Source of the DNA: an uncultured Alphaproteobacteria bacterium
GTDB taxonomy: Bacteria > Pseudomonadota > Alphaproteobacteria > RF32 > CAG-239
Length of the DNA: 64,000 nt
NCBI GenBank assembly: GCA_934277435.1
Contig: CAKQUE010000001.1
Location: forward strand, 385,957-449,956
Direction of reading: 5' to 3'
Made by a program: the position numbers and the translations under genes. Within the stretch, counting starts at the first letter, position 1. Each line of letters begins with the position of its first letter. This document shows positions 3,818-44,965 of this stretch, piece after piece. Below the pieces are notes generated by a model. That model saw only the letters and a program-made list of their open reading frames with translations. It ran no database searches and was not told where the DNA came from.

Positions 3818-3835
3818 TCTTTTCTAAACTCATTA

Positions 3836-3925
3836 AGGCGAAGGGACTTAGACCTTGTACAGACCGTTACGGCTGCTTTCTTCCGAACCTGACCGAGTTG
3901 GCGGTTTTCCAACCCTAAGCCCTTC
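3836..3925 (-). ncRNA. ffs: Signal recognition particle RNA (small 4.5S type)
   Basis: Minus-strand transcript contains GGUCAGGUUCGGAAGAAAGCAGCC, matching the conserved SRP domain IV motif. The 5' segment GAAGGGCUUAGGG pairs with the 3' segment CUAAGUCCCUUC. It lies immediately upstream of dnaX, the usual position. Confidence 0.8.
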
Positions 3926-3984
3926 ATTAATAAATACCCTTTCATAATGGGCAAAATTACATATTTTGCAAGCAAAAAATAAAC

Positions 3985-8031: not shown

Positions 8032-9171
8032 TTAACGCGGCTTATCAGAGATATATTCCTTTACTAATTGGCTGTTTAGCTTATTAGGTTGCTTCGGTGT
8101 CTTAGACTTATTTTCTTGAATGGGGTCTGTTCTTTCTGCTGTTCTTTCTGTTCTTTCTGCTGTTCTTTCTGTTCTTTCTGTTCTTTCTGTTTTTAGTTTA
8201 TTATGAAAATTAGTTAAATGTTCGGATACAGTTCTTTGAATTTGAGCTTGTTCCAAAGAAGCAATTAATGGTTTTTCGCCGCGGTGTGTGGCATTGATAT
8301 ATGTCGCTCTGCCGGCTTCGATTTCTTTTACCAGCGACTCCATTTTTTCAGAATCATTTTTTATTATAAAATCAAAATGCCACTTAGCCGACCATCTATT
8401 ATAATCTTCTTCTGACCTAAACATAATAAGCTGACCGTTATGTTGCATAACATCTTTAGGAGTAACTTCTTGGTGATGAACAACTTTAACATCTCCGGCC
8501 GCGGTATATTCAGTAATATTTCCCTGTTTATCAATTTCAGGCTTAAAATTCTCGCCATCCAAAATAAAAATATGTCCTTTTTTAGCTCCGCTTTCAAAAT
8601 CGGCAAAACGTGTTTCACAGCCTATTAAAATCGGATGATTTTCTTCACTATAATTTATGCTGTAACTGCATTTCTTTAATGCGTAAGCATAGCTGCCGTC
8701 TTGCGGAACAGGCACGCCTTTTTCATCAAAAACGGGTTGATTGTTGTCATCAGTTTTAGATGGAATACCAAAAACACGTTCCGGAATACCAAGTTCCTTT
8801 TGTAAATCTGCCCCCATCGGATAACCGGCTTCCATCAAAACTTCATAAGTCTCTTTGCCAGCTGTTTCAGGGTGATTTTTTCTATAGCTATCAACAAATT
8901 TCTGTTGCAAATCTTTGATTGCGTCCAATTCATTTTGTGTTTCTTTCGGAAAAGCCGGCAGCATCATTTCGGCGTCGCCGAGTTTTGCCTCCGGATGTTT
9001 TTTAGCATAAATATCCTTAAAAGTTTGTTCATCAACGTGTGTACCATGCACAATATATTTAGCTTTTTTTATTCCTTTGCGCTTTTGTGTTTGTTCTTGA
9101 TTAACTTTTGTGAGTACTGCTTTTATATCTTGCAAAAGTTTTTGGATTTCCGGTGAATAATTTTTTTCCAT
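8032..9171 (-). CDS. Hypothetical protein with C-terminal TER/TAER tandem repeats
   Basis: 379-aa ORF with no recognisable family. The C-terminus is encoded by 9-nt tandem repeats. No signal peptide. Confidence 0.55.
   Translation of the reverse strand: MEKNYSPEIQKLLQDIKAVLTKVNQEQTQKRKGIKKAKYIVHGTHVDEQTFKDIYAKKHPEAKLGDAEMMLPAFPKETQNELDAIKDLQQKFVDSYRKNHPETAGKETYEVLMEAGYPMGADLQKELGIPERVFGIPSKTDDNNQPVFDEKGVPVPQDGSYAYALKKCSYSINYSEENHPILIGCETRFADFESGAKKGHIFILDGENFKPEIDKQGNITEYTAAGDVKVVHHQEVTPKDVMQHNGQLIMFRSEEDYNRWSAKWHFDFIIKNDSEKMESLVKEIEAGRATYINATHRGEKPLIASLEQAQIQRTVSEHLTNFHNKLKTERTERTERTAERTERTAERTDPIQENKSKTPKQPNKLNSQLVKEYISDKPR
8126..8190. repeat. In-frame 9-nt tandem repeat (ttctttctg) with occasional 3-nt inserts
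   Basis: Direct reading shows ctgttctttctg repeated about six times. It encodes TERTERTERTAERTERTAERT. Confidence 0.85.
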
Positions 9172-20421: not shown

Positions 20422-21027
20422 ATGACTGATTTATTAGGTAAATCTGATACAAAACATATTGAAAAACCAAACACCAAGCATTTGGAAAATAAAGAAACAA
20501 AAAAGCTGGGAATGAGCGATACTCGTGCAAAGAAAATTAAACATTCTTACAATGTTAAAGATGCAGAAAACGCGTTGCTTTTGAAAACTAAAAACGGGGA
20601 CATCGTTATTGAAATGTTTCCAAATGACGCTCCAAACCATGTTGCTCGTATAAAAGAACTTGTGCGTGACGGTTTTTATAACGGCTTAAAATTTCACCGT
20701 GTAATAGATGGTTTTATGGCGCAAACCGGAGATCCGCGCGGTAATGGTACCGGTGGCAGCGGTAAAAAGCTGAAAGCCGAGTTTAACCGCAATCGTCATA
20801 CTCGCGGCACGGTTTCTATGGCGCGGGCGATGGATCCGGACTCTGCTGATAGCCAATTCTTTATCTGTTTTGCTGATTGTCCATGGCTTGATGGCCAATA
20901 CACCATCTGGGGACAGGTGACTTCCGGTATGGAATATGTTGACCAAATTAAGCGAGGTTCCGGTTCAAACGGAATGGTTGCCGAACCGGATGTGATTGTG
21001 TCTATGTCTGTCATCGCAGATATATAG
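20422..21027 (+). CDS. ppiB: Cyclophilin-type peptidyl-prolyl cis-trans isomerase
   Basis: FHRVIDGFMAQTGDP and WLDGQYTIWGQV motifs. N-terminal basic extension. Confidence 0.9.
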   Translation: MTDLLGKSDTKHIEKPNTKHLENKETKKLGMSDTRAKKIKHSYNVKDAENALLLKTKNGDIVIEMFPNDAPNHVARIKELVRDGFYNGLKFHRVIDGFMAQTGDPRGNGTGGSGKKLKAEFNRNRHTRGTVSMARAMDPDSADSQFFICFADCPWLDGQYTIWGQVTSGMEYVDQIKRGSGSNGMVAEPDVIVSMSVIADI

Positions 21028-21400
21028 GGGAACTCGTCTAATGGTCTACTACTTTTAACTTTTTGTGCTTGTGTACCTCATTGTACACGGCGCAAAAAAG
21101 TTAATGCGTATTAGCCTCATTATCCAAGTCCCTGCGAGTTTGTGCCGGTTGCAGCAATAAGCAGCCGGTTTTTCTTATGTACTAGTTTGTACACTGCGCA
21201 AAAATCTTACTTCGCATTGAGCTCATTATCCGAGTTTCTTAAGAGCAAGAGCAATGCGAATAACGGCACATCTAAAGGCAATTTACGTTCGTTCAGAAAA
21301 TTCATGTACTTCTATGTACACTAGGATTTTCTTCAGAACTAGAGTTGCCTTTATCTGTACCATTATTCGCATTGCTTTATATGATTGTCACTGTTTTGTT
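21028..21400. repeat. Array A of the intergenic repeat family (about 3 units)
   Basis: Each unit has TGTAC-N6-TGTACA, then GCGCAAAAA..., then the hairpin GCCGGTTGC-loop-GCAGCCGG plus a T-run. Near-identical to 32190..32470. It starts with GGAACTCGTCTA directly after the ppiB stop. Confidence 0.85.
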
Positions 21401-21456
21401 TTTAGTTTGTGCCGATTGCAATAAAAATCTTAAAGAATGTTTTTTGTACAAAATTC

Positions 21457-21485
21457 TTGATATTTGGCAAAAACGTTATATAATC
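21457..21485 (+). promoter_or_regulatory. Sigma70-like promoter (TTGATA-16-TATAAT)
   Basis: Near-consensus hexamers upstream of the 21527 ORF. Confidence 0.5.
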
Positions 21486-31415: not shown

Positions 31416-32189
31416 ATGAGTAGAGTAATTACTTTAATGCCGGTTAGATTAGCCGCAACCAGACTGCCTAACAAACCTTTGCGCGTGATTAATGGTAAAA
31501 CTATGGTACAGCGCGTTTATGAAAATGTAAAAAAAGCATTGAACACCGATATAGCCATTGCTGCCGGTGACCAAGCTATTGTGGACGAATGCACAAAATT
31601 TGGCGCTAAGGCAATTTTAACCGACCCAAATTTGCCAAGTGGCACGGATAGAATTGCCGCCGCTTTGAAAGAGCTTGATCCGGACGGTTCAAAATATGAT
31701 ATTGTTGTTGATTTTCAAGGCGACAATATCAATGTTGACCCTAAAGTTACATTGCCATTGATAGAAATGGTGGAACGTACCGGCTGCGATATTGCCACCT
31801 GCGGTATGCTGATTAAAACCGAAGAAGACAAAAACAATCCTAATGTGGTAAAAATCATTATGGGACTGAAAGAAGGCGAAAAAGAAGCTCGTTGTCTATA
31901 CTTTACCCGTGCGACGGCGCCTTATACTCGCAATCCGGAAAAATGCCCGAATCAAGATTTATATTATCACATCGGTATTTATGTTTTTAAAGCAGCTTCT
32001 TTGCATAAAATGGTTTCACTTCCTACTGGTGTGTTGGAAAAACGTGAGGCCTTAGAGCAACTGCGCGCTCTGGAAAATGGTATGGAAGTTCGCGCTATGT
32101 TGGTTGACAACATTAAACTTGTTCCCGAAGCTCCGGCGGATATAAATACGGAAGAGGATTTGGCGAATGCTCTTCCTTATATAAAATAA
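31416..32189 (+). CDS. kdsB: 3-deoxy-manno-octulosonate cytidylyltransferase (CMP-Kdo synthetase)
   Basis: MPVRLAATRLPNKPL start and typical KdsB length and motifs. Confidence 0.9.
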   Translation: MSRVITLMPVRLAATRLPNKPLRVINGKTMVQRVYENVKKALNTDIAIAAGDQAIVDECTKFGAKAILTDPNLPSGTDRIAAALKELDPDGSKYDIVVDFQGDNINVDPKVTLPLIEMVERTGCDIATCGMLIKTEEDKNNPNVVKIIMGLKEGEKEARCLYFTRATAPYTRNPEKCPNQDLYYHIGIYVFKAASLHKMVSLPTGVLEKREALEQLRALENGMEVRAMLVDNIKLVPEAPADINTEEDLANALPYIK

Positions 32190-32470
32190 TGGAACTCGTC
32201 TAGCTGGTATCTGCTGGGGATTTTTGCGCTCGTGTACTAATCTGTACACGTCGCTTAAAAATTCCGTCGCATCTACGCACGCTATCCGAGTTTCTGAGAG
32301 TTAGTGCCGGTTGCCTTAAAGCAGCCGGTTTTTCTTGTGTACCACTTTGTACACGTCGCAAAAAAGTTAATGCGTATTAGCCTCATTATCCTAGTTTCTG
32401 CAAGCTTGTGCCGGTTGCAGCAATAAGCAGCCGGTTTTCTTATGTACTAGTTTGTACATAGCGATACCAA
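32190..32470. repeat. Array B of the intergenic repeat family (about 2.5 units)
   Basis: Starts with GGAACTCGTCTA immediately after the kdsB stop. Units share TGTAC-N6-TGTACA, GCGCAAAAAAGTTAATGCGTATTAGCCTCATTATCC and the GCCGGTTGC hairpin plus T-run with array A. Confidence 0.85.
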
Positions 32471-32480
32471 TACAGGTTGC

Positions 32481-32520
32481 AACAAAAAAAACAGCCCTTA
32501 ATTAAAGGACTGTTTTTTTG
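32481..32520. terminator. Bidirectional terminator
   Basis: A-run, then the hairpin acagccctt / aaggactgt, then a T-run. Confidence 0.65.
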
Positions 32521-32525
32521 TTAGA

Positions 32526-33023
32526 TTACGCTGGTGCTTCTGCACCTTCGCTTGTTTCAGCAACCGTGGCTGGATTTTTTTCTTCGGCTTTACGCTCGGA
32601 AGAATAAATTCCATAGTCGCGCGCTCCGCTGACAGTCAAAAGAATGCTTAGAGCAGACAAAAGTCCCTCCCATTCTACTGGTCGAACATTAAAGTATGGA
32701 GATACAATAAAATTATTGCTATACCCCAGAACCAAAATCCAGCCAATAGCAGGAATCCAGAACTTGTTACTCAACTCACGACCACCAGCCGTCGCGTTAA
32801 TAGCTTTTTGCAACGGACCTAAATAGCGGAATCTCTGCAACACTATGTCGCGGGCGCCGCCAAGTCCAATCACAATACTAAATGTCAAAATCAACTGATA
32901 CCAGTCGATAATTCGACAATCAAAATACGGAGCCAATGCGCAGTTGTGAAAGAAACCATACGCAATAACCACTCCTAACGCTGGAATCCACATACGGGAT
33001 TTCTTGACTTTAATCTTAATCAT
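32526..33023 (-). CDS. Small membrane protein with internal 2x (2-TM) duplication
   Basis: Repeats WIPALGVV...SPYF...GARD and WIPAIGWI...SPYF...GARD. Downstream of the pilin genes on the same strand. Confidence 0.5.
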   Translation of the reverse strand: MIKIKVKKSRMWIPALGVVIAYGFFHNCALAPYFDCRIIDWYQLILTFSIVIGLGGARDIVLQRFRYLGPLQKAINATAGGRELSNKFWIPAIGWILVLGYSNNFIVSPYFNVRPVEWEGLLSALSILLTVSGARDYGIYSSERKAEEKNPATVAETSEGAEAPA

Positions 33024-33138
33024 ACTAAAAAAAATATAAAGATTAATAATTTTCTTCCTAAGATTTAAAATACGCCATATGGCCTATTTTGTCAAGGGAT
33101 TATTGTTAATTTGTCTATATTTTTTAGCATTTTCTGTT

Positions 33139-33774
33139 CTAAAATGCCCAAATCGCAATGGCGCAAGTGTTGTTTGTACCGCAGTTGCATGCGTTGGCTA
33201 TAGTTGTTATGGGCATATCCTTATTATAGCAAATAGCAAAATCATTGTCTGAAGTTTCGCATTTTGCGGCTGAGGAATATTGGGTATAGCCTGAAATTTT
33301 AGAAGTACTGTTTGGATTGTTTGAACCGGAGGCAACCAAAATAGTTTTGGGACCGCCCAAACCTTTACTCAAAATTTGGATGCAAGCATCGCGGGACAGA
33401 GATTTCAGCTCAACTATAACACCTTTGTCTGTTGGGGTTAAACCATAAAGTTCTTTTGCCGAACCAACTCTAACTTCACCGCCGTAAACGTGAGTAACCT
33501 TGCCGCTGGAGTTAATCATTTCATCTGGAATAATTTTCATTTTTTTTGCAGATGTGTTATTTAAGCCGGTGTATTTACCGCCTTGACGCAACCCGATGCT
33601 TTTGGCGTTGGCAATAATAGTGCCGATTTGTTCAACAATGTTGTTAACCTTGTAGGCGTCCATGGCTTTACTGAAACCATTGATGCCGCCAACGCTCAGC
33701 ACGCCGATAATTGCCAGCACACCCAGCATTTCTATCATTGAACGACCTTGTTCAAATTTATTGATATTCATCAT
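33139..33774 (-). CDS. Type IV pilin (paralog 1)
   Basis: Prepilin leader ...FEQG^RSMIEMLGVLAIIGVLSVGGI with Glu at +5. C-terminal disulfide loop CNCGTNNTC. Confidence 0.8.
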   Translation of the reverse strand: MMNINKFEQGRSMIEMLGVLAIIGVLSVGGINGFSKAMDAYKVNNIVEQIGTIIANAKSIGLRQGGKYTGLNNTSAKKMKIIPDEMINSSGKVTHVYGGEVRVGSAKELYGLTPTDKGVIVELKSLSRDACIQILSKGLGGPKTILVASGSNNPNSTSKISGYTQYSSAAKCETSDNDFAICYNKDMPITTIANACNCGTNNTCAIAIWAF

Positions 33775-33789
33775 TTGCAGAATTCCTTA

Positions 33790-34398
33790 TTAGTTAAATT
33801 TTAAAGCTACAATACAAGAGTTAGAAGATGAGCAGTTGCAGCCTTTTGCTGCGTCAACAGGCGACATTGGGGTTTTCTCTGCCGGTAATATGGCATATTT
33901 TTTAGCAGCATTAATATCTCCAGCACCATCATCAAGTAAATCTGTCTTAAAATTTTGTTTGTCACCAACGCCAATCATTTGGAAAGTAGAACTCTTGGTG
34001 CCCCAATCTTGAGTGGCTAAATAAATACAAGCAACTTTAGGCAGTCCATTATAAGATATTATATATGACATATCTGTAGGTGTAATTTTTATATTTCCGT
34101 GGAATAGATTTGTTAAAGTTCCATTGCTAGCATTGGCAATCGCTTCTTTAGGAATAGCGCCGAATTTGATGGCAGCTTTGTTGTCTAATCCGTCATAAGA
34201 CGCAACTTCGGAACCGACAGCAGAAAGTTTTGCGGCAATAGCGTTGATTTGTTCATAAGTCTGGGTGATTTTATAACGTTCAAGCATTTGCGAAAAGGCG
34301 GCTATGCCCCCCACGCTTAAAACGCCGACAATCGCTAAAACACCAAGCATTTCTATCATAGAACGACCGGTCATATTCGATAATTTATTATAATTCAT
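33790..34398 (-). CDS. Type IV pilin (paralog 2)
   Basis: Same leader, G^RSMIEMLGVLAIVGVLSVGGI. C-terminal CNCSSSNSC. AGGAGG RBS before the ATG at 34398. Confidence 0.8.
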   Translation of the reverse strand: MNYNKLSNMTGRSMIEMLGVLAIVGVLSVGGIAAFSQMLERYKITQTYEQINAIAAKLSAVGSEVASYDGLDNKAAIKFGAIPKEAIANASNGTLTNLFHGNIKITPTDMSYIISYNGLPKVACIYLATQDWGTKSSTFQMIGVGDKQNFKTDLLDDGAGDINAAKKYAILPAEKTPMSPVDAAKGCNCSSSNSCIVALKFN

Positions 34399-34472
34399 AA
34401 TATCCTCCTGTTTGCTATTTTTGTAACACGTATGCAAGCTGGCGTCAAGCTATATTAAGGCGGAGATAAGTA

Positions 34473-35732
34473 TCAAATTTTTGGCAGCGTCACCATAAAT
34501 GTAGAGCCTTTGCCAAATTTGCTGTCCACAGTGATTTTGCCGTTATATTTTTGCACGATGTCTTTAGCCAGAGCCAAGCCCAGACCAAATCCTCCGCTTT
34601 GGCGATTGCGGCTTTTATCGGCGCGGTAAAAACGTTCAAATATATGGGGTATATCCTCATTTTTTATGCCGCGGCCTTGGTCAGAAACCTCAATTTTCAG
34701 ATTATGTTCATTTTCTGAAACCTTGAGGGAAATATCTTTGTCGCTGGGTGTGTATTTTAGCGCGTTGTCAAGCAATATGGTCAGCAAACGTTCCAAATGC
34801 TGTGCCGACATTTTTATTTTTGCTTTTGCGGGGCAAATCACTTTGATTGGATGTTGCCGTTCTTGATGAACCGTATTCAAACGTTCGGTCAAAGGTTTGA
34901 TGATGTTGGCAATATCGATTTCTGAAACCGCGGTGTTTTTAGTGTTTTCCAAACGAGTAAGTGCCAGTAGGTTTTCAATAAGTTCGGACATATTTTTGGT
35001 TTCATCGCGCATAACCTGCAGCGCCTTGGCATTTTGCGGCTGCTGTTGCAATATTTCGGTGTAAGTCAGCAATACGCTGAGAGGAGTTTTTAGCTCGTGT
35101 GAAGCGTCGGAAACAAATTCTTTTTGTTTGTTATAGGCCTCCTGCAAAGGTTTTACGGCGTTGTTAGAAATTAAATAAGCGGTGAGAATCGAGAGCAAGC
35201 ACAAAAGACCAACCAAAATTAAACCATAGCTTTTATAGCGGTGAGTGACATAAATATACGGTGTGACATTGAGCAAAGCAACTACTTGATATTTGTCGCC
35301 GCTGGGTTCATCAATCCAGCTTTGGGACAAGGCTACAAAGCGCCAGCGCTCGCCGTTGTTTTTGATTTTAACTGTTTTGATTTCTCCGTCTTTTCCCTGC
35401 CACTTGGTCATTTTTTGCGTCAGAATATTACCGGTTTCTCCGGCTGGTTGTTCTAAGCGGCGCATTTGTCCGTTTACAAAGCCATACGAGAAAAAATGCA
35501 GGGCGTTATTGCTTGCGGCGACGGCTATTCTTTCCGGCTTGAATGCGAGTTCGGCGGCTTCTTGCTTAAATTCAAAAACTTCTTCTTGCAAATAGTCATA
35601 AAGGCTTGAAGATATTACATTTTTAGAAATAATGCGATAGGTGGCGTATCCGCCCAAAAATATGAGCAAGGACACGCTGAATAATATTAGCGAATAGCGA
35701 ATTAAAAGTTTATGTTTTAAGGCGTCTATCAT
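34473..35732 (-). CDS. Sensor histidine kinase (PmrB/BasS-like)
   Basis: Two TM helices flanking a periplasmic domain. H-box HELKTPL. G-boxes in the HATPase_c domain. Confidence 0.85.
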   Translation of the reverse strand: MIDALKHKLLIRYSLILFSVSLLIFLGGYATYRIISKNVISSSLYDYLQEEVFEFKQEAAELAFKPERIAVAASNNALHFFSYGFVNGQMRRLEQPAGETGNILTQKMTKWQGKDGEIKTVKIKNNGERWRFVALSQSWIDEPSGDKYQVVALLNVTPYIYVTHRYKSYGLILVGLLCLLSILTAYLISNNAVKPLQEAYNKQKEFVSDASHELKTPLSVLLTYTEILQQQPQNAKALQVMRDETKNMSELIENLLALTRLENTKNTAVSEIDIANIIKPLTERLNTVHQERQHPIKVICPAKAKIKMSAQHLERLLTILLDNALKYTPSDKDISLKVSENEHNLKIEVSDQGRGIKNEDIPHIFERFYRADKSRNRQSGGFGLGLALAKDIVQKYNGKITVDSKFGKGSTFMVTLPKI

Positions 35733-36418
35733 TTGAGTTCCAGCATATATCCAATGTTTTTGAGCAGGTTTATTTGGATGTTATCTTGCCAGATTTTAAG
35801 CTTTTTGCGCAAATTGTAAATATAAGAATCCAAATTGGCGCTGCTGATTTCGGGATTATTGCCCCAAACTTTGTCAAAAAGTGTTTCGCGCAAAATAGTC
35901 TTATCATGGTTTACAAAAAGAATCTGCAATATTTTAAATTCGGTTTTAGAAAAATTAAGCGTTTTCTTGCCGTTGCTCAAGGTATTTTGCGCGCAATCCA
36001 AAACATAGCCGTCGGCTTCAAACAAGCTGTCGACATAAGGTTTGTTTTTGCGGCGCAGCACAGCGTGAATACGCGCTTTTAGCTCGCGGATTTCAAAAGG
36101 TTTGGTAATATAATCATCGGCCCCAACTTCCAGAGCCTGCACACAATCATCAAGCTCGGATTTGGCGGTTAAAAATATGATGCCGCCGCTGTAGTGTCCT
36201 TTTTTGATATCTCTAAGCCATTTGCATACTTCCAAACCAGAAAGCTCAGGCAGCATCCAATCCAAAAGCACCACATCATATTGCGAAGTTCCGTATTTAA
36301 TTTCTTCAATAGCTTCGGTTCCGGTTGTTGCCAAATTTACCTCATAACCGTCAATTTCAAGCAGGGTTTTGATGCCTTGTCCTAAATTAATATCGTCTTC
36401 AACCAATAAAATATGCAT
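35729..36418 (-). CDS. OmpR-family response regulator (PmrA/BasR-like)
   Basis: Receiver domain (LLVEDD...D...LDWMLP). Winged-helix C-terminus. Overlaps the kinase start. ATG at 36418 with a GGGAGA RBS. Confidence 0.85.
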   Translation of the reverse strand: MHILLVEDDINLGQGIKTLLEIDGYEVNLATTGTEAIEEIKYGTSQYDVVLLDWMLPELSGLEVCKWLRDIKKGHYSGGIIFLTAKSELDDCVQALEVGADDYITKPFEIRELKARIHAVLRRKNKPYVDSLFEADGYVLDCAQNTLSNGKKTLNFSKTEFKILQILFVNHDKTILRETLFDKVWGNNPEISSANLDSYIYNLRKKLKIWQDNIQINLLKNIGYMLELK

Positions 36419-36466
36419 AAAGTTATCTCCCAAAACATAGTTTATGTTGTTTTTATTAAGAACTCA

Positions 36467-36540
36467 ATCTGAAAGTTATCTGAGAGAATTTAATTTTTAT
36501 CTGAAAAATTTTTTAGATTCTTTCAGATTGTTTTCAGATT
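36467..36540. promoter_or_regulatory. Phased direct repeats ATCTGAAA / TTTCAGAT in the divergent intergenic region
   Basis: ATCTGAAA at 36467 and ATCTGAGA at 36478 are 11 bp apart. A further ATCTGAAA at 36499. TTTCAGAT at 36521 and 36532 are 11 bp apart in the opposite orientation. This is an OmpR/PhoB-type box architecture. Confidence 0.5.
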
Positions 36541-36579
36541 AGCGTTTTAATTTTGCCAATGTACCAACAGGAGGACAAA

Positions 36580-36858
36580 TTGAAGATAAAAAGAATAAGT
36601 ATAAAATCATCAACATTAATTTGCTTGGTTGCCCTATACTTTGCAACGGTTTTAAACTTGTCGTTTTGGTGCTACATAACACATTATATCCAAATTGACA
36701 ATCCGATGATGTTGATGTTTGCTTTTTCCCTTGGCATATTTATATTTGTTCCGCTGTATGCGTTGTTCAATCTTTTGATTTGTCCTCATGTTGGTAAACT
36801 GATGACAATAATATTACTTTTAGGTGGCGGTTGCTGCCAATTATCAAATGTTAGCTGA
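36580..36858 (+). pseudogene. N-terminal fragment of an EptA-like phosphoethanolamine transferase (truncated remnant)
   Basis: The 92-101 aa membrane ORF aligns by eye to the EptA N-terminal TM domain (KRISIKSS..LNLSFW.....ILLLGGGCCQ versus E. coli KRPSLNLL..LNIAFF...FILVGAAAQY). There is no room for the sulfatase domain. AGGAGG precedes a TTG start at 36580. Confidence 0.45.
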
Positions 36859-36893
36859 CGGCATATATAGAGTTGGCAAGGTTATAAAGTAAA

Positions 36894-36966
36894 TCCCCGC
36901 AAAACAACAGAACATATATCTTATTCCTTCTGGATATATGTTTTGTTGGCGGGGACGTTTTTTTTG
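36894..36966. terminator. Long stem-loop with T-run (bidirectional terminator)
   Basis: tccccgcaaaacaacagaacatatatc pairs with gatatatgttttgttggcgggga, then a T-run of 9. Confidence 0.65.
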
Positions 36967-36969
36967 CGT

Positions 36970-38115
36970 CTAGTCTTTGATTTTGCGGCTCATAAACAGC
37001 AAGTACAGCGCGCATAATATCATTACGGCGACAGCTCCGTGCTGGTTGTTGACAAAGTCGGAGGCAATACCCATCAACAGCGGAAATACGGTGCCGCCGA
37101 AAATACCCATAATCATCAAGCCGGAAACCTCATTACCGTGACGCGGCATGGTTTTGAGAGCTTGCGAAAAAACAACCGGAAAAATATTTGCGTTGCCGTA
37201 GCCAATGCAGGCAATGCAAATATACAGCAGTTCTTTACTGTTGAATAAAAAGATGCCGATAAGGGCAAAAAACATCAAAATCACACTGCCTAAAAAATAT
37301 TTATGGTTGGAGTATTTGGCTAAAATATAGGCGCCGCTAAAACTGCCAATGGTGCGGAAAAAGAAATATATGCTAGTGGCATAGCCGGCTTGTTCCAAAG
37401 TCCAGCCCAGTTTTTGCATAAGCAGTTTCGGGGTGGTTACATTAGTGCCAACGTCAAGCCCAACATGGCACATCACCGCCATAAAACAAAGAAAAATTGT
37501 TCCGTTGCCTAAAAGCATGGCACATTCTTTGAAGCCCGAAGTTTTGCCAACTTCCGTTTCTTCTATTTTTTCGCGTGACAATAAAACAAACGCCAAGACA
37601 GTTTCGGCTAAAAAGAACGGAAACAGCACTTGCCATTTGCCAAAGTGAATAGCACCCCAGCCGGCGAGAATCGGTGCTACAAATGAAGCTGTGGCTTTAA
37701 CAAACTGTCCAAAGGTGAGGGCGCTGGACATTTTATCTTTGGCGACAATGTTCGAAACAAGCGGATTTAGTGAAACTTGCATAATGGTGTTGCCAATACC
37801 CAATAAAGAAAATGAAATCATAATGATTATCATATTGTAGTCAAATATCGGCAAAAGCAAAGCCAGCATAGTGATGGCCAAGCTCAGCAGCACGGTTTTA
37901 CGGCGTCCGATTTTGTTCATCAGCAGACCTGTCGGAACTGAAAAAATCAAAAACCAAAAAAATGTCATTGATGTAAACAAGTTTGCCATTGTGTCGGAAA
38001 GGGCAAAATCGACTTTGACATAGTTGGTGGCTATGCCGACAAAGTCGACGGCGCCCATGGCAAAAAAGGCGAACATAATTGGTATCAGTTTTTTGAACAT
38101 ATCCGTTTTAATCAT
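36970..38115 (-). CDS. MFS transporter (sugar/FucP-like)
   Basis: 12 predicted TM helices. MFS motif NKIGRRKTVL. Adjacent to a sugar kinase gene. Confidence 0.8.
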   Translation of the reverse strand: MIKTDMFKKLIPIMFAFFAMGAVDFVGIATNYVKVDFALSDTMANLFTSMTFFWFLIFSVPTGLLMNKIGRRKTVLLSLAITMLALLLPIFDYNMIIIMISFSLLGIGNTIMQVSLNPLVSNIVAKDKMSSALTFGQFVKATASFVAPILAGWGAIHFGKWQVLFPFFLAETVLAFVLLSREKIEETEVGKTSGFKECAMLLGNGTIFLCFMAVMCHVGLDVGTNVTTPKLLMQKLGWTLEQAGYATSIYFFFRTIGSFSGAYILAKYSNHKYFLGSVILMFFALIGIFLFNSKELLYICIACIGYGNANIFPVVFSQALKTMPRHGNEVSGLMIMGIFGGTVFPLLMGIASDFVNNQHGAVAVMILCALYLLFMSRKIKD

Positions 38116-38135
38116 GGCTATTCTCCTATTACAGG

Positions 38136-38993
38136 TTATTCATATTTTGGCCAAGCGCCGCTTTTGGTGCAGACAAACGCCGCAGTGGCAACAGCTTGTT
38201 TGTGGGCTTCGCGCATGGACTTTCCGGTTAGCAAGCCCATAACGAATCCGGCAGAAAAAGAATCGCCGGCGCCAACTGTGTCGGCAACTTTGACTTTGGG
38301 CGTATCCAAATAAGATTTTTCGCCGTTGGCCGCATAAACAATGCTGTATTTTTCTCCGGCAGTAAAAATCAGATAGCGCAAATCGTATTTTTTTATAAAC
38401 CAATGGCAAATGTCTTCATCAGAGAGATTGAGTTCAAATAGTTTTTGCACTTTAACCATTTCTTCGTCATTGATTTTGAAAACGTTGGCTTCTTGCAAAA
38501 GCTCGTCAATCAGTTCTTTGGAAAAATAGTTGCTGCGCAAATTGACATCAAACAACTTAAAGGCTTTTTGCGGTGCGTGTTTTAAAAGAGTCAGAACCGA
38601 AGCTCTGGTTTGCGGCGAGCGCAGCGCCAACGTGCCAAAACAAACGGCGTCGGCTTTTTCCACCACGGCTATTTCTTTTGGTGTGACGGCCAAATGGTCC
38701 CAAGCAACACCCTCAACAATGGTATAAGTCGGAATACCGTTGTTCAGCTCAATTTCAACAACGCTGGTGGGGTAGTCGTTGCGTTCCAGCACATGGTGAA
38801 TGTGGCTTTTTTCCAGTTCAGCAATGATTTCGTCGCCCAAAGCGTCTTTACCAACCGCGCTGATGGCGTAACCGTCGGCGCCGAGCTGAGTGGCGTTATA
38901 AACAAAATTAATCGGCGCTCCGCCGGCACGCTTGCCTTTTGGCAGCATATCCCACAGAAGTTCGCCGATTCCTACAACAACAGGTTTGCTCAT
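38136..38993 (-). CDS. PfkB-family sugar kinase (fructokinase-like)
   Basis: GG motif and DTVGAGDSFSAGF signature. 285 aa. Confidence 0.85.
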   Translation of the reverse strand: MSKPVVVGIGELLWDMLPKGKRAGGAPINFVYNATQLGADGYAISAVGKDALGDEIIAELEKSHIHHVLERNDYPTSVVEIELNNGIPTYTIVEGVAWDHLAVTPKEIAVVEKADAVCFGTLALRSPQTRASVLTLLKHAPQKAFKLFDVNLRSNYFSKELIDELLQEANVFKINDEEMVKVQKLFELNLSDEDICHWFIKKYDLRYLIFTAGEKYSIVYAANGEKSYLDTPKVKVADTVGAGDSFSAGFVMGLLTGKSMREAHKQAVATAAFVCTKSGAWPKYE

Positions 38994-39084
38994 CTTTGCC
39001 TCCTTTGCTAATAATATAGTTTTAATTTAGCATATTTTAAGTAAAAATCCAATAAAAAAAGGCGGAGAAAAACACCGCCAAAAT

Positions 39085-39660
39085 CTAAAACAAGCCGCCG
39101 TCAATGCGCCATGCGCCGTCATAAACCAAATGAAACACCGCGCAATTTTCTATTTTGCCAAAATCAAAGTGCAGATAGTTCAAAAGACTGCCCATTGTGC
39201 CGCCGTGAATAGCTACGCCGATGACGTTATAAGGTGTTTGCCTCAGGTCTTCTATTTGTCGCCAAACTCTTTCGAGCGCGGCTTGTTTGCTTTCGCCGTC
39301 GGGGTAGGCGATGTTCCAAACTTCTGGATTGCTCCAGTTGTTGTAGACATCAGGATATTTTTCGGCGAGTTCTGATTGCAGCATACCTTCGGCGCGGCCA
39401 TAAAAACATTCTTGTAAATCATCTTTGATAATAAGCGGACAATGCAGTGTTTTTGCCACGGTTTGCGCCGTTTGCACCGCTCTTTTAAGCGGGCTGGAAA
39501 AAATGATATCTAAATTGCACTGAGCCAGTTTTTGCGCCAAAGCGATTGCTTGTTCTTGGCCTTTGGCTGTCAATTCCATATCTATGCCGGAACCTTGCTG
39601 CCGGTGTTGCAGGTTAAATTCGGTTTCGCCGTGGCGGAAAATATAAAAATCTTTACGCAT
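39085..39660 (-). CDS. Histidine phosphatase family protein (phosphoglycerate-mutase-like)
   Basis: RHGETEFN catalytic motif. About 191 aa. Confidence 0.85.
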   Translation of the reverse strand: MRKDFYIFRHGETEFNLQHRQQGSGIDMELTAKGQEQAIALAQKLAQCNLDIIFSSPLKRAVQTAQTVAKTLHCPLIIKDDLQECFYGRAEGMLQSELAEKYPDVYNNWSNPEVWNIAYPDGESKQAALERVWRQIEDLRQTPYNVIGVAIHGGTMGSLLNYLHFDFGKIENCAVFHLVYDGAWRIDGGLF

Positions 39661-39663
39661 GGA

Positions 39664-40143
39664 TTAGAGCGCTTTCAAGCCGACTTTGTGCGCCACAATG
39701 CGGAAAACTTTTTCTTCATCTTCCGGAGTTAATATGCCATAAAGCGGCAGACAAAACGGGGTAAAGTCGCCATTGTGTTTTTGTAAAAAGTTGTATTTGT
39801 AATCAATGCCTTTTTTAGGAATAAGCACAATTACACGGCGTTTTTTGCCGCAACAAGTAACCATGCGTTCTTCGGCAATTTCAATATCTTTCCACGCCAC
39901 CGGATTGGTATGGTCAATTTTGATGGTGTCGTCGGTGATAACCGCCATAATTTGTTTGGTGGCGTATTTATAAATCCAAATTAAAAGAGTTGCCGTCAGC
40001 AGCCCAAACAAAACCTGAAACTCCCACCAATAAGCGTAGGATTTGCTGCAGAACAGACAAGAACAAAGTGCCGCCAACACAAGGATATTCAAGACTAACC
40101 AAACATAGTTTTTTTTGAAATGGTAATAAATAATTTCATTCAT
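39664..40143 (-). CDS. Hypothetical membrane protein
   Basis: Two N-terminal TM helices and a soluble C-terminal domain of about 90 aa. Only 3 nt before the phosphatase gene, so likely co-transcribed. Confidence 0.5.
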   Translation of the reverse strand: MNEIIYYHFKKNYVWLVLNILVLAALCSCLFCSKSYAYWWEFQVLFGLLTATLLIWIYKYATKQIMAVITDDTIKIDHTNPVAWKDIEIAEERMVTCCGKKRRVIVLIPKKGIDYKYNFLQKHNGDFTPFCLPLYGILTPEDEEKVFRIVAHKVGLKAL

Positions 40144-40253
40144 AATAGCCGCCTTTCAAATATTTTATCCAAAACAAGTATATATTATTTTGCGCGTGAA
40201 GGTAAAGTAAAAAATGAAGCTGTTTTTCGATAAATTTATTAATTTAAGTATAT

Positions 40254-40284
40254 AAAAAAATACCGTTTTGCAACGGTATTTTTG
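40254..40284. terminator. Terminator downstream of pilin paralog 3
   Basis: ataccgtt-ttgc-aacggtat hairpin with A-run and T-run flanks. Confidence 0.7.
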
Positions 40285-40314
40285 TGAACTAATGTAATTT
40301 TTGCTGTAAGGAAA

Positions 40315-40974
40315 TCAGTAGTATTTCCACAAAATAGAGCATGTGTTACCTTTATCGCAGTTGCATGCTTTAGCAGCTTGAGTAACTTGCATCGGTACAG
40401 CTAATGTTGTATTTCCTGGCATAGCTATAGAATCACCATCTTCTTTTTTTGCTGAGGCAGAGCCAATATAAACTGTATCCAAGCTGTCATCGCGTGCAGT
40501 TGGAGCAGCAGTTGCTGTGGCATTGCCTTTTACTTCGATAGCAATCAAACCAGAAGAATAGCCAGAACCCCAGTCGTTGGTAGCTAAAGTGATGCAAGCT
40601 TCACGTGATAATTGTGTGAATTCAATTACGAATGCTTTTGTGTCGCCATCCACAGTACTGTCAGCTTCATTGATAAATACAGGACCGTTAAACGCATTTG
40701 TCAGAGTTCCGGCAGTGGCATCTGTAACCAATTCGTCTGGTACAACACCCATAGATACAGCATTGGCATTGTCTAAATCTGTATAAGTATTTTGCTGAGC
40801 ATACAAGGTTTTGATGTTGGCAACCAACATAGAAACATTATCAGAAACTTTATTTGTTTTGAATTTGTTCATAGCTTTTGAATAGCCGGCAATACCACCA
40901 ACAGACAATACACCGATGATGGCCAATACACCCAGCATTTCAATCATGGAACGACCAGATTCATTTACTCTCAT
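40315..40974 (-). CDS. Type IV pilin (paralog 3)
   Basis: Leader MRVNESG^RSMIEMLGVLAIIGVLSVGGI. C-terminal CNCDKGNTC. AGGAGA RBS. Confidence 0.8.
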   Translation of the reverse strand: MRVNESGRSMIEMLGVLAIIGVLSVGGIAGYSKAMNKFKTNKVSDNVSMLVANIKTLYAQQNTYTDLDNANAVSMGVVPDELVTDATAGTLTNAFNGPVFINEADSTVDGDTKAFVIEFTQLSREACITLATNDWGSGYSSGLIAIEVKGNATATAAPTARDDSLDTVYIGSASAKKEDGDSIAMPGNTTLAVPMQVTQAAKACNCDKGNTCSILWKYY

Positions 40975-41175
40975 TGTTTTTCTCCTAAAAATTATATGTA
41001 TAAGGGTCTCCTAAACCCGTTGTAGAATTATACTTGAACAAGCCTCCTAAACTTGTTCAATAGCAACATACTGCTTAATTCTTTCAAAATTATTAATATC
41101 ACAAATTTTTGTTTTTCGCAATACGACAAGCGGTATATTACTTTAGTAATAGTTTGCTACTGAGGTGGCTTGATA

Positions 41176-41208
41176 ATAAAAAAAGCCGTCTAAAAAGACG
41201 GCTTTCAA
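41176..41208 (-). terminator. Terminator after tRNA-Arg
   Basis: aaagccgtc-taaaaa-gacggcttt hairpin. Confidence 0.7.
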
Positions 41209-41214
41209 GCTTGT

Positions 41215-41291
41215 TGGCGCGCTCCGGGCGATTCGAACGCCCGACCCACAGCTTAGAAGGCTGTTGCTCTATCCTGCTGAGCTAGGAGCGC
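41215..41291 (-). tRNA. tRNA-Arg (anticodon TCT)
   Basis: Cloverleaf folded by hand. Acceptor GCGCUCC/GGAGCGC. Anticodon loop CUUCUAA. T-loop UUCGAAU. Encoded CCA. Confidence 0.9.
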
Positions 41292-41434
41292 AATAACATA
41301 CGATGCATCATAAGTCGCACAAAAAATGTTAGTTGTCAATAAATAAAATAAATTATTTTTTTATTTTTTGTGTTGCATTTTAGACAAATTTGAGTTATGG
41401 TCAAAAAGATTTCGAATTTTTAATTTAATTATTT

Positions 41435-41764
41435 ATGGCAGAAAATTTAGTCAACTGTTTTGTTAACTTCTCCGAGGGTGTTAATGGTTTCTCTTCTGAG
41501 GAACGTTCTGAGATTTCTAAGGCCTTCCGCAAAGATCTGAAGGCTTACAAAGTCAGCGGCGCAATCATGAAAATTGTCGAAAGCGCCAGCAACAAGGTTC
41601 CTGTGTACATCAATGTGATGTGTCAGCAATGCCGAAAGAAAAAATTTGTCACAGAGTTCGAAGAGGAATGTTCTCGCCTTCGTCGCCTTTATGCGCGCAC
41701 TCGCCCAGAGGTGGCCTTGAAAATACGACATCTCCATGATGTCGTGATTGACAGCTTGAAGTAA
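41435..41764 (+). CDS. Hypothetical protein
   Basis: 109-aa ORF between tRNA-Arg and rpmJ, followed by a strong terminator. No recognised family. Confidence 0.4.
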   Translation: MAENLVNCFVNFSEGVNGFSSEERSEISKAFRKDLKAYKVSGAIMKIVESASNKVPVYINVMCQQCRKKKFVTEFEEECSRLRRLYARTRPEVALKIRHLHDVVIDSLK

Positions 41765-41784
41765 GGCTGTTCTTAGTAAAAGTT

Positions 41785-41821
41785 AAGCACTGGTTTTGAT
41801 AATGGAACCAGTGCTTTTTTG
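41785..41821 (+). terminator. Rho-independent terminator
   Basis: aagcactggtt-loop-aaccagtgctt followed by tttt. Confidence 0.8.
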
Positions 41822-41835
41822 TGTGCCTAATTTTA

Positions 41836-41870
41836 AAAAATAAAAAAGGCTCTCGCTAGAGAACCTTTTG
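41836..41870 (-). terminator. Terminator downstream of rpmJ
   Basis: aaaggctctc-gcta-gagaaccttt with a T-run on the minus strand. Confidence 0.55.
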
Positions 41871-41884
41871 AATTGTGCCTTAGA

Positions 41885-42010
41885 TTAACCCTGACGAGCT
41901 TTCAGCTTCGGGTTCTTTTTATTAATCACATAAACGCGACCTTTACGACGAACTACTTTACAGTCCTTATCACGTTCTTTTTTAGATTTTAACGAACTGA
42001 AACATTTCAT
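41885..42010 (-). CDS. rpmJ: 50S ribosomal protein bL36 (zinc-independent type)
   Basis: Hand translation gives [41 protein letters not shown] (41 aa). The [11 protein letters not shown]...KARQG core is the bL36 signature. Below the 60-aa cutoff of the ORF track. Confidence 0.8.
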
Positions 42011-42168
42011 TTTTCTTATCCTTTACAAAACATTTTGAGCGCAAAATAAGCTATTTATCGGCAAATGTCAACCTATTTTTTTGCGTATTTGTATAAAATT
42101 AAGATATCTTTTATTTTTTAATCATATATCATATTAAAAATTAACTTTTTTATAAAAGGATTTGATAG

Positions 42169-42723
42169 ATGAAAAAGCTGTGTTTTTTAGCGGTGGCAAT
42201 GTGCTTTTGCGCCGTCGAAGTTTGGGCGGCTAAGCCGATATCTTATATGGATGAAATTCGCCAGCTTGGATATGTGGCCGGTCAGGGCTTGGCTTGCCGC
42301 GCTCGCAAATATCATCAATACGAGCTTTTGGCGCGCGCTTTGCTGGTGACAAAATCGCCAAACGACAAGGCGCAAAAAGAAGCTATGGTGGCATATAATG
42401 AGGCTAAAATAACTTCTATGTCGGCTGTTTTTGCGCAGGATTATGCCGGTTGTGATAGTATTGTGCATGATTTTAATCAACAAAAAATATTTAACAGCGT
42501 GCTTTATGCCGATGGTAAAATAAAGCTTTATGACGGCAAAATGTTGACCCCGCGTAAACTTTATGACGCTTCAAGCCTTTATAAAAAAGACCCTAATATA
42601 TATGATAATGCCTATGCTACATATAAAAAAGCTCTTGCAAAGGCCGAAAAAAACAGGCAGAATGCCAAAAAATTAGAATTTCGTGACGCTAATTATAGCC
42701 GTTACGCCGACCAATTTAATTAA
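42169..42723 (+). CDS. Secreted hypothetical protein
   Basis: Signal peptide MKKLCFLAVAMCFCAVEVWA. Lys-rich C-terminus. 184 aa. Confidence 0.5.
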   Translation: MKKLCFLAVAMCFCAVEVWAAKPISYMDEIRQLGYVAGQGLACRARKYHQYELLARALLVTKSPNDKAQKEAMVAYNEAKITSMSAVFAQDYAGCDSIVHDFNQQKIFNSVLYADGKIKLYDGKMLTPRKLYDASSLYKKDPNIYDNAYATYKKALAKAEKNRQNAKKLEFRDANYSRYADQFN

Positions 42724-42738
42724 ATATAGGAGATTATA

Positions 42739-44418: not shown

Positions 44419-44486
44419 CCGAAAAATTTTATATAAAACGTTATAATGTTTGAATTGTGCTCATATAATCCATAAATATTGATTAT

Positions 44487-44903: not shown

Positions 44904-44965
44904 TCAAAGCAATTAATTTTTTTATAACTTTTTTACTCTGTCCCCAACTTTAACGATGAACCAGC

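Follow-up and report, generated by a model that had tools for sequence, protein, structure and literature searches.

Two repeat arrays behind ppiB and kdsB

The stretch of DNA analysed here (the window) comprises 64,000 nt from an uncultured Alphaproteobacteria bacterium (RF32; CAG-239), namely positions 385,957-449,956 of the forward strand of CAKQUE010000001.1, and holds two arrays of an intergenic repeat. The first of these (array A, 21028-21430) lies 3' of a ppiB-like open reading frame (ORF) with a Pro_isomerase domain (PF00160) and a TAG stop codon at 21025-21027, the second (array B, 32191-32460) 3' of a kdsB-like ORF (31416-32189) with a CTP_transf_3 domain and a TAA stop codon at 32187-32189. 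A repeat family behind ppiB and a second array behind kdsB, both opening with the same 12-mer, had been described in an original prediction made from the letters of the sequence, and this description was confirmed: the 12-mer GGAACTCGTCTA is present in the window only at 21029 and 32191, in each case 1 nt past the stop codon, as compared to 0.07 occurrences expected by chance. The motif common to the units had been given as TGTAC-N6-TGTACA, a spelling for which zero matches were obtained; the actual spacer is N5, and TGTAC-N5-TGTACA has six exact sites on the + strand (21072, 21178, 21305, 32233, 32338 and 32443) and, with one mismatch allowed, 12 matches on both strands against a chance expectation of 0.44. 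Direct-repeat analysis revealed the sites of array A to be spaced by 106 nt and then by 127 nt, the spacing between sites elsewhere being 105-106 nt. Between the arrays, 21063-21172 (unit A1) and 32329-32438 (unit B2) are 91% identical over 110 nt, which would suit a simple segmental duplication of one intergenic region in this genome, the explanation which had been favoured for the case that the units occur at only these two sites and yield no transcript. The probability of such an event being the origin of the arrays is negligible and the idea is refuted by the recovery of the units from at least 106 loci in dozens of genomes and of the motif from 113 metagenome stretches (see below), as well as by the fact that the two arrays open with different subfamilies (subfamily 1 in unit A1, subfamily 2 in unit B1).

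As TGTAC and GTACA are reverse complements, the motif constitutes a 5-bp stem with a 6-nt loop, i.e. the tip of a hairpin. It had been considered either a direct or a palindromic repeat, of which the self-complementarity was retained and a function as direct repeat was not. The basic module was identified as an imperfect hairpin of ~105 nt which opens with GGAACTCG 1 nt past the stop codon, closes with CGAGTTTC and carries the motif at its tip. RNAfold predicted both 21028-21176 and 32190-32336 to adopt a long hairpin (from the foot GGAACUCG to CGAGUUUC) and, apart from it, a terminator hairpin (GCCGGUUGC-loop-GCAGCCGG with U's behind), with folding energies of -52.7 kcal/mol (z = -6.4) for A1 and -63.0 kcal/mol (z = -6.7) for B1. 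Each array thus starts with one full hairpin plus terminator, to which half units devoid of a 5' arm are added: unit 2 of both arrays is made up of tip, 3' arm and tail, with a terminator in array B only, and does not fold as a whole (z = -0.6). Array A was earlier taken to consist of three like units, which had to be revised, as unit A2 possesses the body of another subfamily (CTGCGCAAAAATCTTACTTCGCATTGAGCTC) and the third motif site belongs to another hairpin of 131 nt (M3), whose tip it forms and which is placed between the tail of A2 and the decayed terminator of A2. The M3 module also follows a GAGAG tail in at least 10 other loci. The conserved segment GCGCAAAAAAGTTAATGCGTATTAGCC and an intact terminator, both ascribed to every unit, are present in array A in unit A1 only. 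Terminator-like hairpins of 9 pairs each (6 G-C) followed by a T-run were predicted at 21144-21169, 32306-32329 and 32410-32435. In the gut lineage in general, the long hairpin mostly has such a separate intrinsic-terminator module behind it, and more units of tip, 3' arm and terminator may be added in tandem. With the promoter-like sequence of the next gene, the only strong site of the promoter scan, located closely behind its end (Table 1), array A occupies the space from the gene end to the next promoter. A covariance model derived from 99 copies detected arrays A and B and nothing else in the 64-kb window.

The units had furthermore been suggested to be compatible with small RNA (sRNA) genes, given that each ends in an intrinsic terminator. 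In its full form this reading makes every ~105-nt unit an independent gene with its own promoter, and the motif a regulator-binding direct repeat. Units do end in terminator hairpins, the motif spacing equals one helical turn, and other bacteria are known to possess tandem sRNA pairs under regulation of this type. Nevertheless, tandem sRNA genes are very improbable, since a sigma-70-type scan found no sigma-70-like promoter within any unit of arrays A and B, the first unit begins 1 nt past the stop codon, a terminator T-run and the following hairpin tip are just 4-9 nt apart, and the motif, being self-complementary, makes up the tip of a hairpin which has its 5' arm upstream of the motif. Moreover, no Rfam 15 family matched the arrays at the gathering score (at E<=10 only chance-level eukaryotic snoRNA and miRNA hits were obtained), and the 17-codon ORF MRISLIIQVPASLCRLQQ of subfamily-1 bodies is absent from subfamilies 2 and 3. 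Processed fragments of a 3' untranslated region (UTR) arising from the units are possible. Since bodies of subfamilies 2 and 3 lack the 17-codon ORF (ATG CGT ATT...TAA in A1 and B2), its reading as a small toxin or leader peptide was dismissed, and a response-regulator direct repeat upstream of sRNA promoters was discarded because the motif halves are complementary, form the tip and are followed by no promoter. LexA, CtrA, DnaA, sigma-54 and EcfG-type motifs, with which the motif was compared, do not fit either.

Table 1. Modules of arrays A and B and the adjoining promoter-like site (window coordinates)
Feature	Position	Strand	Basis or remark
Array A unit 1, full subfamily-1 hairpin (5' arm, tip, 3' arm)	21029..21132	+	RNAfold; covariance model 106 bits at 21024-21135
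Outer 5' stem GGAACTCGTCTA	21029..21040	+	pairs with 21124-21132
Hairpin tip TGTAC-CTCAT-TGTACA of unit A1	21072..21087	+	motif search and fold
Predicted intrinsic-terminator module GCCGGTTGC-AGCAATAA-GCAGCCGG, then T-run	21144..21175	+	terminator scan and fold
Array A unit 2, half unit: tip 21178-21193, subfamily-3 3' arm, tail	21178..21247	+	body matches the partner of H3 heads at other loci
M3, separate 131-nt hairpin with same-kind tip 21305-21320	21248..21378	+	inverted repeat; fold z = -11.5
Decayed terminator remnant GTTTGTGCCGATTGCAATAAAAATC, end of array A	21405..21429	+	sequence; same array end in L035
Promoter-like TTGATA-16-TATAAT (11/12 matches) for the next gene, outside the repeat	21457..21484	+	promoter scan
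Array B unit 1, full subfamily-2 hairpin, tip 32233-32248	32191..32294	+	fold; covariance model 115 bits
Predicted terminator module of B1, loop CTTAAA	32306..32335	+	terminator scan
Array B unit 2, half unit: tip 32338-32353, subfamily-1 3' arm, tail, terminator 32410-32435	32338..32440	+	
Orphan terminal tip and truncated body (TAGCGATACC...)	32443..32458	+	constant array 3' end in all kdsB strains examined

Dispersal of the family and placement at gene 3' ends

The family was searched in one genome per species using the pattern TGTACN5TGTACAYNNCGCWWAAA, which yielded at least 106 stretches, and the counts for placement and protein families reported below cover these 106 listed loci (L005-L110, ~760 kb), whereby ORF calls were simple and crude and many of the loci are orthologous. 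Nearly all of the stretches derive from metagenome-assembled genomes labelled Alphaproteobacteria that originate from human gut, deer rumen or colon, or chicken; many of the loci come from single genomes and dozens of genomes are represented in all. The organism of the window is itself present in human-gut metagenomes. Among phages (50,697 records), plasmids (72,556 records) and IMG/VR no copies were found, and two of the GC-rich relatives introduced below had no copies among plasmids. The family is apparently undescribed. Some bins labelled [Ruminococcus] gnavus, Bacteroidaceae, Eubacteriales, Clostridia or Gastranaerophilales (L005, L006, L009, L011, L017, L019, L021, L023, L025, L037, L051, L059 and others) carry ppiB, kdsB or other loci which are 80-90% identical to the window, and housekeeping loci of such identity document that the labels of these bins are evidently wrong. 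A second interspersed palindromic repeat (...CCTCGCCCCCTGAGGGAGAGGT...GGGTGAGGGG...) was often encountered 3' of the terminator module (e.g., L017, L021, L045, L081, L093 and L096) and is not part of the arrays in the window.

With respect to the neighbouring genes, the position of the element is narrowly defined. Of the intergenic tips between co-directional genes, 44 are in sense to the upstream gene and none is antisense, and the remaining tips lie between convergent genes (81) or, once, between divergent ones. The distance from the stop codon to the foot of the hairpin, determined for ORFs of at least 80 codons, has its mode at +1 nt, with 27 of 69 values at 0-1 nt and all but seven within -3 to +10 nt; six of these seven outliers form a -13 class, for which the ORF was called to a TAA inside the element. 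About 26 different gene contexts were counted, including ppiB, kdsB and unidentified ORFs, and further contexts resemble, by N-terminal sequence, what we take to be the infB-rbfA region, pheT and proS. In every related species for which the respective sites were retrieved the ends of ppiB and kdsB are occupied, with differing subfamilies. Genes preceding an element end in ATA plus stop codon in ~20 of 69 cases (at least six unrelated genes) versus ~2% of other ORFs, and TAG serves as stop codon in 41% of the element-adjacent genes versus a background of 22-24%, which could reflect either a target preference or a context effect. The junctions considered are those of L005-L110 and of the window (21019-21028).

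Subfamilies, covariation and the invariant tip

Based on their arms, at least 10 subfamilies were distinguished, each possessing its own complementary pair. The arms of three of these are 5' AATGGTCTACTACTTTTAACTTTTTGTGCTTG with the matching 3' CGGCGCAAAAAAGTTAATGCGTATTAGCC, 5' AGCTGGTATCTGCTAGGGATTTTTGCGCTCG with 3' CGTCGCTTAAAAATTCCGTCGCATCTACGCACGC, and 5' AATGGCTTTCTGCTGGTAAGATTTTTTCTTA with 3' CTGCGAAAAAATCTTACTTCGCATTAAGC, and several more exist beyond them. The outer stem covaries among copies, as is evident from the pairs GAAACTCG/CGAGTTTC, GAACCTCG/CGAGGTTC and GAGGCTCG/CGAGCCTC. For 99 distinct copies RNAalifold predicted 30 pairs, 24 of which show compensatory changes; 93.8% of the cells are paired, compared to at most 52% when the 3' partners were slid, and 458 cells with double changes oppose at most 127 in the slid controls, values which none of 500 shuffles reached. 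The tip behaves differently from the arms, as its five stem pairs never vary in the 99 aligned copies. It is part of a conserved motif of ~27 nt, GCKCKYG-TGTAC-N5-TGTACA-CGKCGC, in which the 5-bp stem is located above a conserved 1x2 internal loop.

Copies of one subfamily have near-invariant arms across species and highly variable first three loop positions, with 13 loops among 33 subfamily-1 copies and 15 loops among 29 subfamily-2 copies. Over 500 nt the window and the metagenome contig L003 differ in nothing but this loop (CTCAT versus TAATT). Given that the copies do not differ in their arms, the trace of a short gene-conversion tract would show in the loop only, and this was taken as the explanation for L003. 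A diversity-generating mechanism acting on the loop was considered and rejected, since the changes are not adenine-specific and the loops stem from a small recurring set. A fourth hairpin subfamily with the arms GGGTTTGYCTGTCGGGTCACTACTAGCGC.../...CCAAAAGTGCGGCGTATTGACG was found at L062:118-228, L092:7515-7625 and L103:6083-6193; in L062 and L092 it immediately precedes a pilin gene's ribosome-binding site and start codon, to which it is antisense, and hence constitutes an exception to the placement after a stop codon, the context in L103 being different.

These data bear on the idea of a classical selfish transposable element of the miniature inverted-repeat type (MITE), which would be mobilised in trans by a transposase acting at the terminal inverted repeats GAAACTCGKCTA/TAKCCGAGTTTC, with the siting at 3' ends being either tolerated insertion or target preference. 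The two repeats are ~12 bp long and pair with each other, the palindrome is full-length, copies and subfamilies are many, and at 21248-21378 a hairpin module sits inside another one's tail; under this assumption also the excess of ATA plus stop codon and of TAG could reflect target preference, and an enrichment between convergent genes is described for other small repeats too (PMC3049150). We nonetheless regard a MITE as unlikely. Recognition of the ends by a transposase should leave them conserved, yet here the centre is conserved and the outer stem varies and covaries. No target duplication was identified in the window, at the orthologous ppiB loci or in the kdsB strains, the 5' flank being the stop codon and the 3' flank a further module or unrelated sequence. 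No transposase family recurs among the 106 listed loci, in which the sole multi-copy family is a pilin, and no pair of terminal inverted repeats encloses an ORF. The same gene ends are occupied across species, and both the orientation ratio of 44 to 0 and the sharp peak at +1 nt are hard to reconcile with insertion of this kind. A BLAST gap analysis, which mapped too few loci, revealed no clean empty site, and a search for an autonomous partner element via solitary ends, terminal repeat pairs around ORFs and recurrent protein families returned only the pilins. The earlier view of a REP/MITE-like repeat can consequently be kept as far as the family is dispersed, palindromic, modular and composed of multiple subfamilies, but with no transposase, target duplication or clean empty site found in the loci covered, classical MITE mobility is unsupported.

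Strain-level shuffling of the arrays

Ten contigs share an identical KdsB protein with the window, nine of them at 98-100% kdsB nucleotide identity, and their kdsB arrays differ considerably. Denoting the 5' arm as H, the 3' arm (body) as B and the terminator as T, the array of the window is described as H2-B2-T, B1-T, orphan tip, which is also the organization of L113. The sequence H1-B1-T, B2-T, orphan tip was found in L112 and H1-B1-T, B3-T, orphan tip in L117; three units are present in L114 and L118 (B1, B1, B2) and in L116 (B1, B1, B1), four in L119 (B2, B1, B3, B2) and one, followed by different genes, in L115, and L120 possesses H1-B1-T, B1-T and a third B1 body at the sequence end. 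The modules combined in the family are the 5' arm, the tip, the 3' arm (types 1-4 or more), the tail, the terminator and the M3 hairpin, and one to four or more units follow kdsB. Unit number, order and type therefore differ among strains with identical KdsB and synteny often stops at the element, so that the suggestion of a recombination hot spot was supported.

A special case is L111, which encodes the identical KdsB protein at 91.7% kdsB nucleotide identity and carries an ordinary terminator in place of the element. Its homology to the window stops exactly at the kdsB stop codon. The comparison with L111 reveals a KdsB C-terminus unaltered by the element. As the downstream genes differ too, L111 represents a rearrangement and not a clean empty site. 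Here, kdsB is followed by an HTH_3 gene and then by the ABC-ATPase gene found at 43451-44783 in the window, in inverted orientation, and ~11 kb of the window (32190-43450, including pilins, a two-component system, a major facilitator superfamily (MFS) transporter and tRNA-Arg) are rearranged or absent.

In these arrays the 5' arm beside the stop codon is always the partner of the first body. Counted over all loci, 5' arms and their 3' arms were matched in 93 cases and mismatched in 2, another 60 3' arms lack a 5' arm, and 5' arms standing alone hardly occur. The type of body is exchanged without regard to the terminator loop behind it, and this locates the breakpoints to the shared tip and tail segments. 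In the JAUNIW01 loci all copies within the genome have private, species-specific variants in common, and of 19 locus pairs with a common upstream gene only 5 have any content in common over 2 kb downstream. These patterns fit unequal crossover together with ectopic gene conversion, i.e. concerted evolution, whereby the integrity of the stop-proximal hairpin appears to be kept by selection or by the mode of copy donation.

An alternative source of the shuffling would be site-specific recombination, with the tip (inverted arms of 5-7 bp around a 6-bp spacer) resembling the core site of a tyrosine recombinase and with units or neighbouring genes behaving as cassettes. Array units are indeed bounded by tips, some of which have identical loops (tagtt...tagtt in L112, L117 and L119), unit number and order differ between near-identical strains, synteny breaks at the element (downstream content is kept in the mentioned 5 of 19 pairs, and L115 and L111 have other downstream genes), and type IVb pilin genes often abut, ~17 of 48 having a tip within 500 nt of their 3' end. 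All the same, such a system is decidedly improbable: no recombinase gene recurs near the elements of the listed loci, free exchange at the tip predicts mismatched arms as opposed to the observed ratio of 93 matched to 2 mismatched, adjacent tips mostly differ in their loop, which would block a tyrosine recombinase, and the swapping of bodies independent of terminator loops indicates breakpoints in the tail, as in homologous exchange. On the 8-kb scale the pilin density near elements (0.059 per kb) hardly departs from the 0.047 per kb of the window. An integron-like attC or cassette array was also rejected, because the units have no ORF and follow dispersed housekeeping genes, no integrase recurs, and GTCTAAT/GTTAGTG is only loosely similar to the core (RYYYAAC...GTTRRRY).

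Three type IVb pilin paralogues (Pfam PilS/Bundlin; N-terminus GRSMIEMLGVLAI) are encoded on the - strand of the window itself, at 33139-33774, 33790-34437 and 40315-40974. In the listed loci this is the only multi-copy protein family, with 48 genes in 35 of the 106 loci or ~0.05 per kb, a density which would imply ~100 paralogues per genome; the ~17 genes within 500 nt of an element are convergent to a housekeeping gene. A special link between pilins and the element was not adopted, as the density near elements is close to the genome-wide density.

Relatives of the tip in GC-rich genomes

The extended tip motif GCTYG-TGTAC-N5-TGTACA-CGNCGC (20 specified bases) was found in 113 metagenome stretches, 38 of which have a GC content of 50-69%. 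In these the motif tops hairpins of 40-49 pairs with arms unrelated to those of the gut copies, and a covariance model built from gut copies only scores such relatives at 30-49 bits over their full length. In the GC-rich contigs one copy per locus was seen; one of them carries an sRNA of the mmgR/suhB family, an alphaproteobacterial family. The GC-rich copies were located directly after a stop codon, which is sometimes inside the stem (L127, L129, L130, L152, L163, L170, L185, L188, L191 and L224), ~3 nt after the RNA of the signal recognition particle (SRP; L208 and L212), after the 5S rRNA that closes an rRNA operon (L200), behind a tRNA (L134), and in spacers between two tRNA genes, either within the 16S-23S spacer (L184, L186 and L202) or between other tRNAs (L161 and L232), in both of these latter settings on the strand opposite to the tRNAs. 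The SRP RNA gene of the window (3834-3928, - strand) is, by covariance-model search, not followed by a hairpin element, in contrast to L208 and L212.

Judged by these comparisons, the tip is old, conserved as sequence and borne by lineage-specific arms, which is the opposite of the usual MITE pattern of conserved ends. One may go further and suppose that the tip, found in genomes of ~38-69% GC, is the site of a conserved and undescribed trans-acting protein and hence stands for a new class of gene-end signal, a proposal that we consider improbable on balance but worth stating. If true, the signal might for example act in RNA 3'-end processing or decay or as a termination or topology insulator, and the gut lineage would have turned it into shuffling cassettes.

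The contexts listed above likewise raise the question of whether the element acts as DNA where transcription units end, for example by binding gyrase or a nucleoid protein, with the tip being a protein-binding palindrome and transcription being incidental. E. coli BIMEs are known to bind gyrase and IHF. In accordance with such a role the element follows highly transcribed units (5S rRNA at an operon end, SRP RNA, tRNAs, housekeeping genes), its tip is conserved as sequence and not as structure alone, its folding energy has no strand preference, and both orientations occur in tRNA spacers. A double-stranded binding site, however, needs neither the sharp foot position at +1 nt nor the strict sense orientation of the gut clade, and the covariation by which the arms keep their pairing matters only if the strands fold on themselves; further, no binding protein is known. 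A purely DNA-level element is thus distinctly unlikely.

Proposed role of the cassettes

Taking these results together, arrays A and B are best explained as dispersed, modular, imperfectly palindromic 3'-end cassettes of the BOX/BIME/ERIC kind, which would be co-transcribed with the upstream gene and evolve by unequal crossover and gene conversion, an explanation to which we assign a probability of roughly 0.6. The proposed course of events assumes that transcription of the upstream gene includes the cassette as the 3' untranslated part of its transcript and that the long hairpin together with the terminator ends the transcript. Both structures would probably block 3' exonucleases and keep terminating ribosomes from proceeding. 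Since the first base of the stem is at +1, a ribosome that terminates has to open the foot of the stem, whereby translation and folding of the element would be coupled. The arrays are then suggested to change by unequal crossover and gene conversion among dispersed copies, with breakpoints in tip and tail. The strict sense orientation, the placement at +1 and the attached terminator speak for an action on the transcript or at least one coupled to transcription and translation, and the sequence conservation of the tip along with the conserved, unpaired half units speaks for protein recognition of the tip. The invariant tip is most likely the recognition site of a putative conserved host or mobilising factor. 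The folding, the spread over genomes, the position and orientation at genes, the covariation of the arms and the reshuffling among strains are observed; transcription, the role as terminator and stabiliser, the factor and any mobilisation are inferred.

Several observations weigh against the proposed role. In AT-rich copies the sense and antisense strands fold equally well (-44.0 versus -44.6 kcal/mol), hence without sense preference, and for the GC-rich copies it is the opposite strand that folds better in 30 of 32 cases, which is due to the mismatches of the sense strand being pyrimidine-pyrimidine. The excess of G.U over A.C (395 versus 158) may only reflect a T-rich sense strand. Half units remain near-consensus with no pairing partner, so that selection for a hairpin is insufficient on its own, and their conservation points to either recent copying or recognition of the sequence itself. 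The arms of a DNA palindrome covary under any model, be it RNA or single-stranded or cruciform DNA, and therefore covariation alone is no proof of an RNA function. At the kdsB site of L111 the element is dispensable, given the ordinary terminator there, and in the tRNA spacers the motif is found on the strand opposite to the tRNA genes. Finally, with crude ORF calls and many orthologous loci the placement counts are not independent.

What is unusual about the family is the deep conservation of the tip, the placement with near single-nucleotide precision, the matched first hairpin combined with terminator-bearing half units, and the rapid shuffling. Small interspersed repeats are usually viewed as lineage-specific genomic parasites, and in this family the conserved part is the tip of the hairpin and not its ends; with it, the question of functional 3'-end signal versus selfish DNA becomes directly testable. 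For uncultured gut Alphaproteobacteria the arrays are relevant as strain-level markers (by unit number and order), as possible assembly breakers and as points of change in gene order.

Comparison with known repeat families

By analogy, the closest in kind is the pneumococcal BOX element. BOX repeats of S. pneumoniae and S. suis (boxA-boxB(n)-boxC) are modular, vary in boxB copy number and are enriched between convergent genes, and in 36 genes BOX supplies the stop codon (PMC3049150). The gut family resembles them in having modules, a strain-variable internal copy number, mixed module types, a predicted stem-loop, an enrichment between convergent genes, a frequent location at the very 3' end of genes with the stop codon sometimes supplied, and no convincing transposase. 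Unlike BOX, to which there is no sequence similarity and which belongs to another phylum, its repeated unit comprises tip, 3' arm and terminator, its first unit has a matched 5' arm, its orientation is strictly sense, and its tip is conserved far beyond the repeat-bearing clade.

With REP and BIME sequences it shares palindromes at the 3' ends of transcription units, mosaics, a species-specific consensus and a reported function in mRNA 3'-end protection or termination. REPs are 20-40 nt long, start with a 5' tetranucleotide of the GTAG type, take alternating orientations in BIMEs and are associated with RAYT transposases. The palindrome described here differs in measuring ~105 nt, in having one orientation and in lacking a GTAG-type foot. 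No RAYT was seen in the listed loci, RAYT genes usually being single-copy per genome. The position of the foot recalls REPs within 15 nt of a stop codon, for which stalling of ribosomes is cited (as summarized in PMC5082802).

ERIC/IRU and Correia (NEMIS) elements are imperfect palindromes of ~105-155 bp that are co-transcribed and exert orientation-dependent effects on mRNA stability, with ribosome-dependent exposure of an RNase E site in the case of ERIC and RNase III cleavage in the case of Correia (PMC2229807). These differ from the gut family in their conserved ends (with TA target duplications for Correia), their occurrence in both orientations and their variable distance to genes, and they have neither an attached terminator module nor tandem half units. 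SPRITE, an interspersed repeat resembling a Rho-independent terminator, is most strongly enriched downstream of genes (PMC3049150); it amounts to the terminator-like hairpin alone, whereas here the terminator is one module behind a longer conserved hairpin.

Within the Alphaproteobacteria, CIR repeats of Caulobacter, Brucella and other members (Chen & Shapiro 2003) are, in the account given in PMC2229807, ~110 bp in size, carry a motif at the hairpin tip and are of unclear mobility. As far as that summary goes, they have in common with the gut family the intergenic ~110-bp format, the cross-species occurrence in Alphaproteobacteria and a short conserved tip motif. By the same description, which is what sets the two apart, CIR consists of two arms plus a linker with the CcrM site GANTC at the tip, as opposed to a single hairpin with TGTAC/GTACA and no conserved GANTC. 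Br-REP1 and Br-REP2 of Bradyrhizobium have different sequences. Ribosome termination structures are stable structures located just after stop codons, for which translation insulation was proposed (PMC7518266). Like the cassettes they place a structure right behind the stop codon, and they are enriched after operon-terminal genes and before convergent genes; yet they are a statistical property of unrelated sequences with a peak at the edge of the ribosome footprint, and the cassettes are a repeat family with a stem starting at +1.

Other repeats in the window

Apart from the two arrays, three further repeats were recorded. The segments 60840-60923 and 61040-61123 are 95% identical and consist of the last 15 nt of tRNA-Val (60779-60854), a terminator and ~40 nt, repeated 200 bp downstream; with ~116 bp between the copies, they resemble the att-type direct repeats left by an integrated element. 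Direct repeats with 98-100% identity, 172 nt apart, are located at 44964-45069 and 45136-45240; they overlap the 3' end of tRNA-Lys (45222-45297, - strand) and the hairpin AAAAAAAGCCACCATAAAGGTGGCTTT and represent a second partial duplication of a tRNA 3' end. At 8126-8191, the 9-nt repeat CTGTTCTTT is present in ~5.6 copies with a higher-order period of 21.

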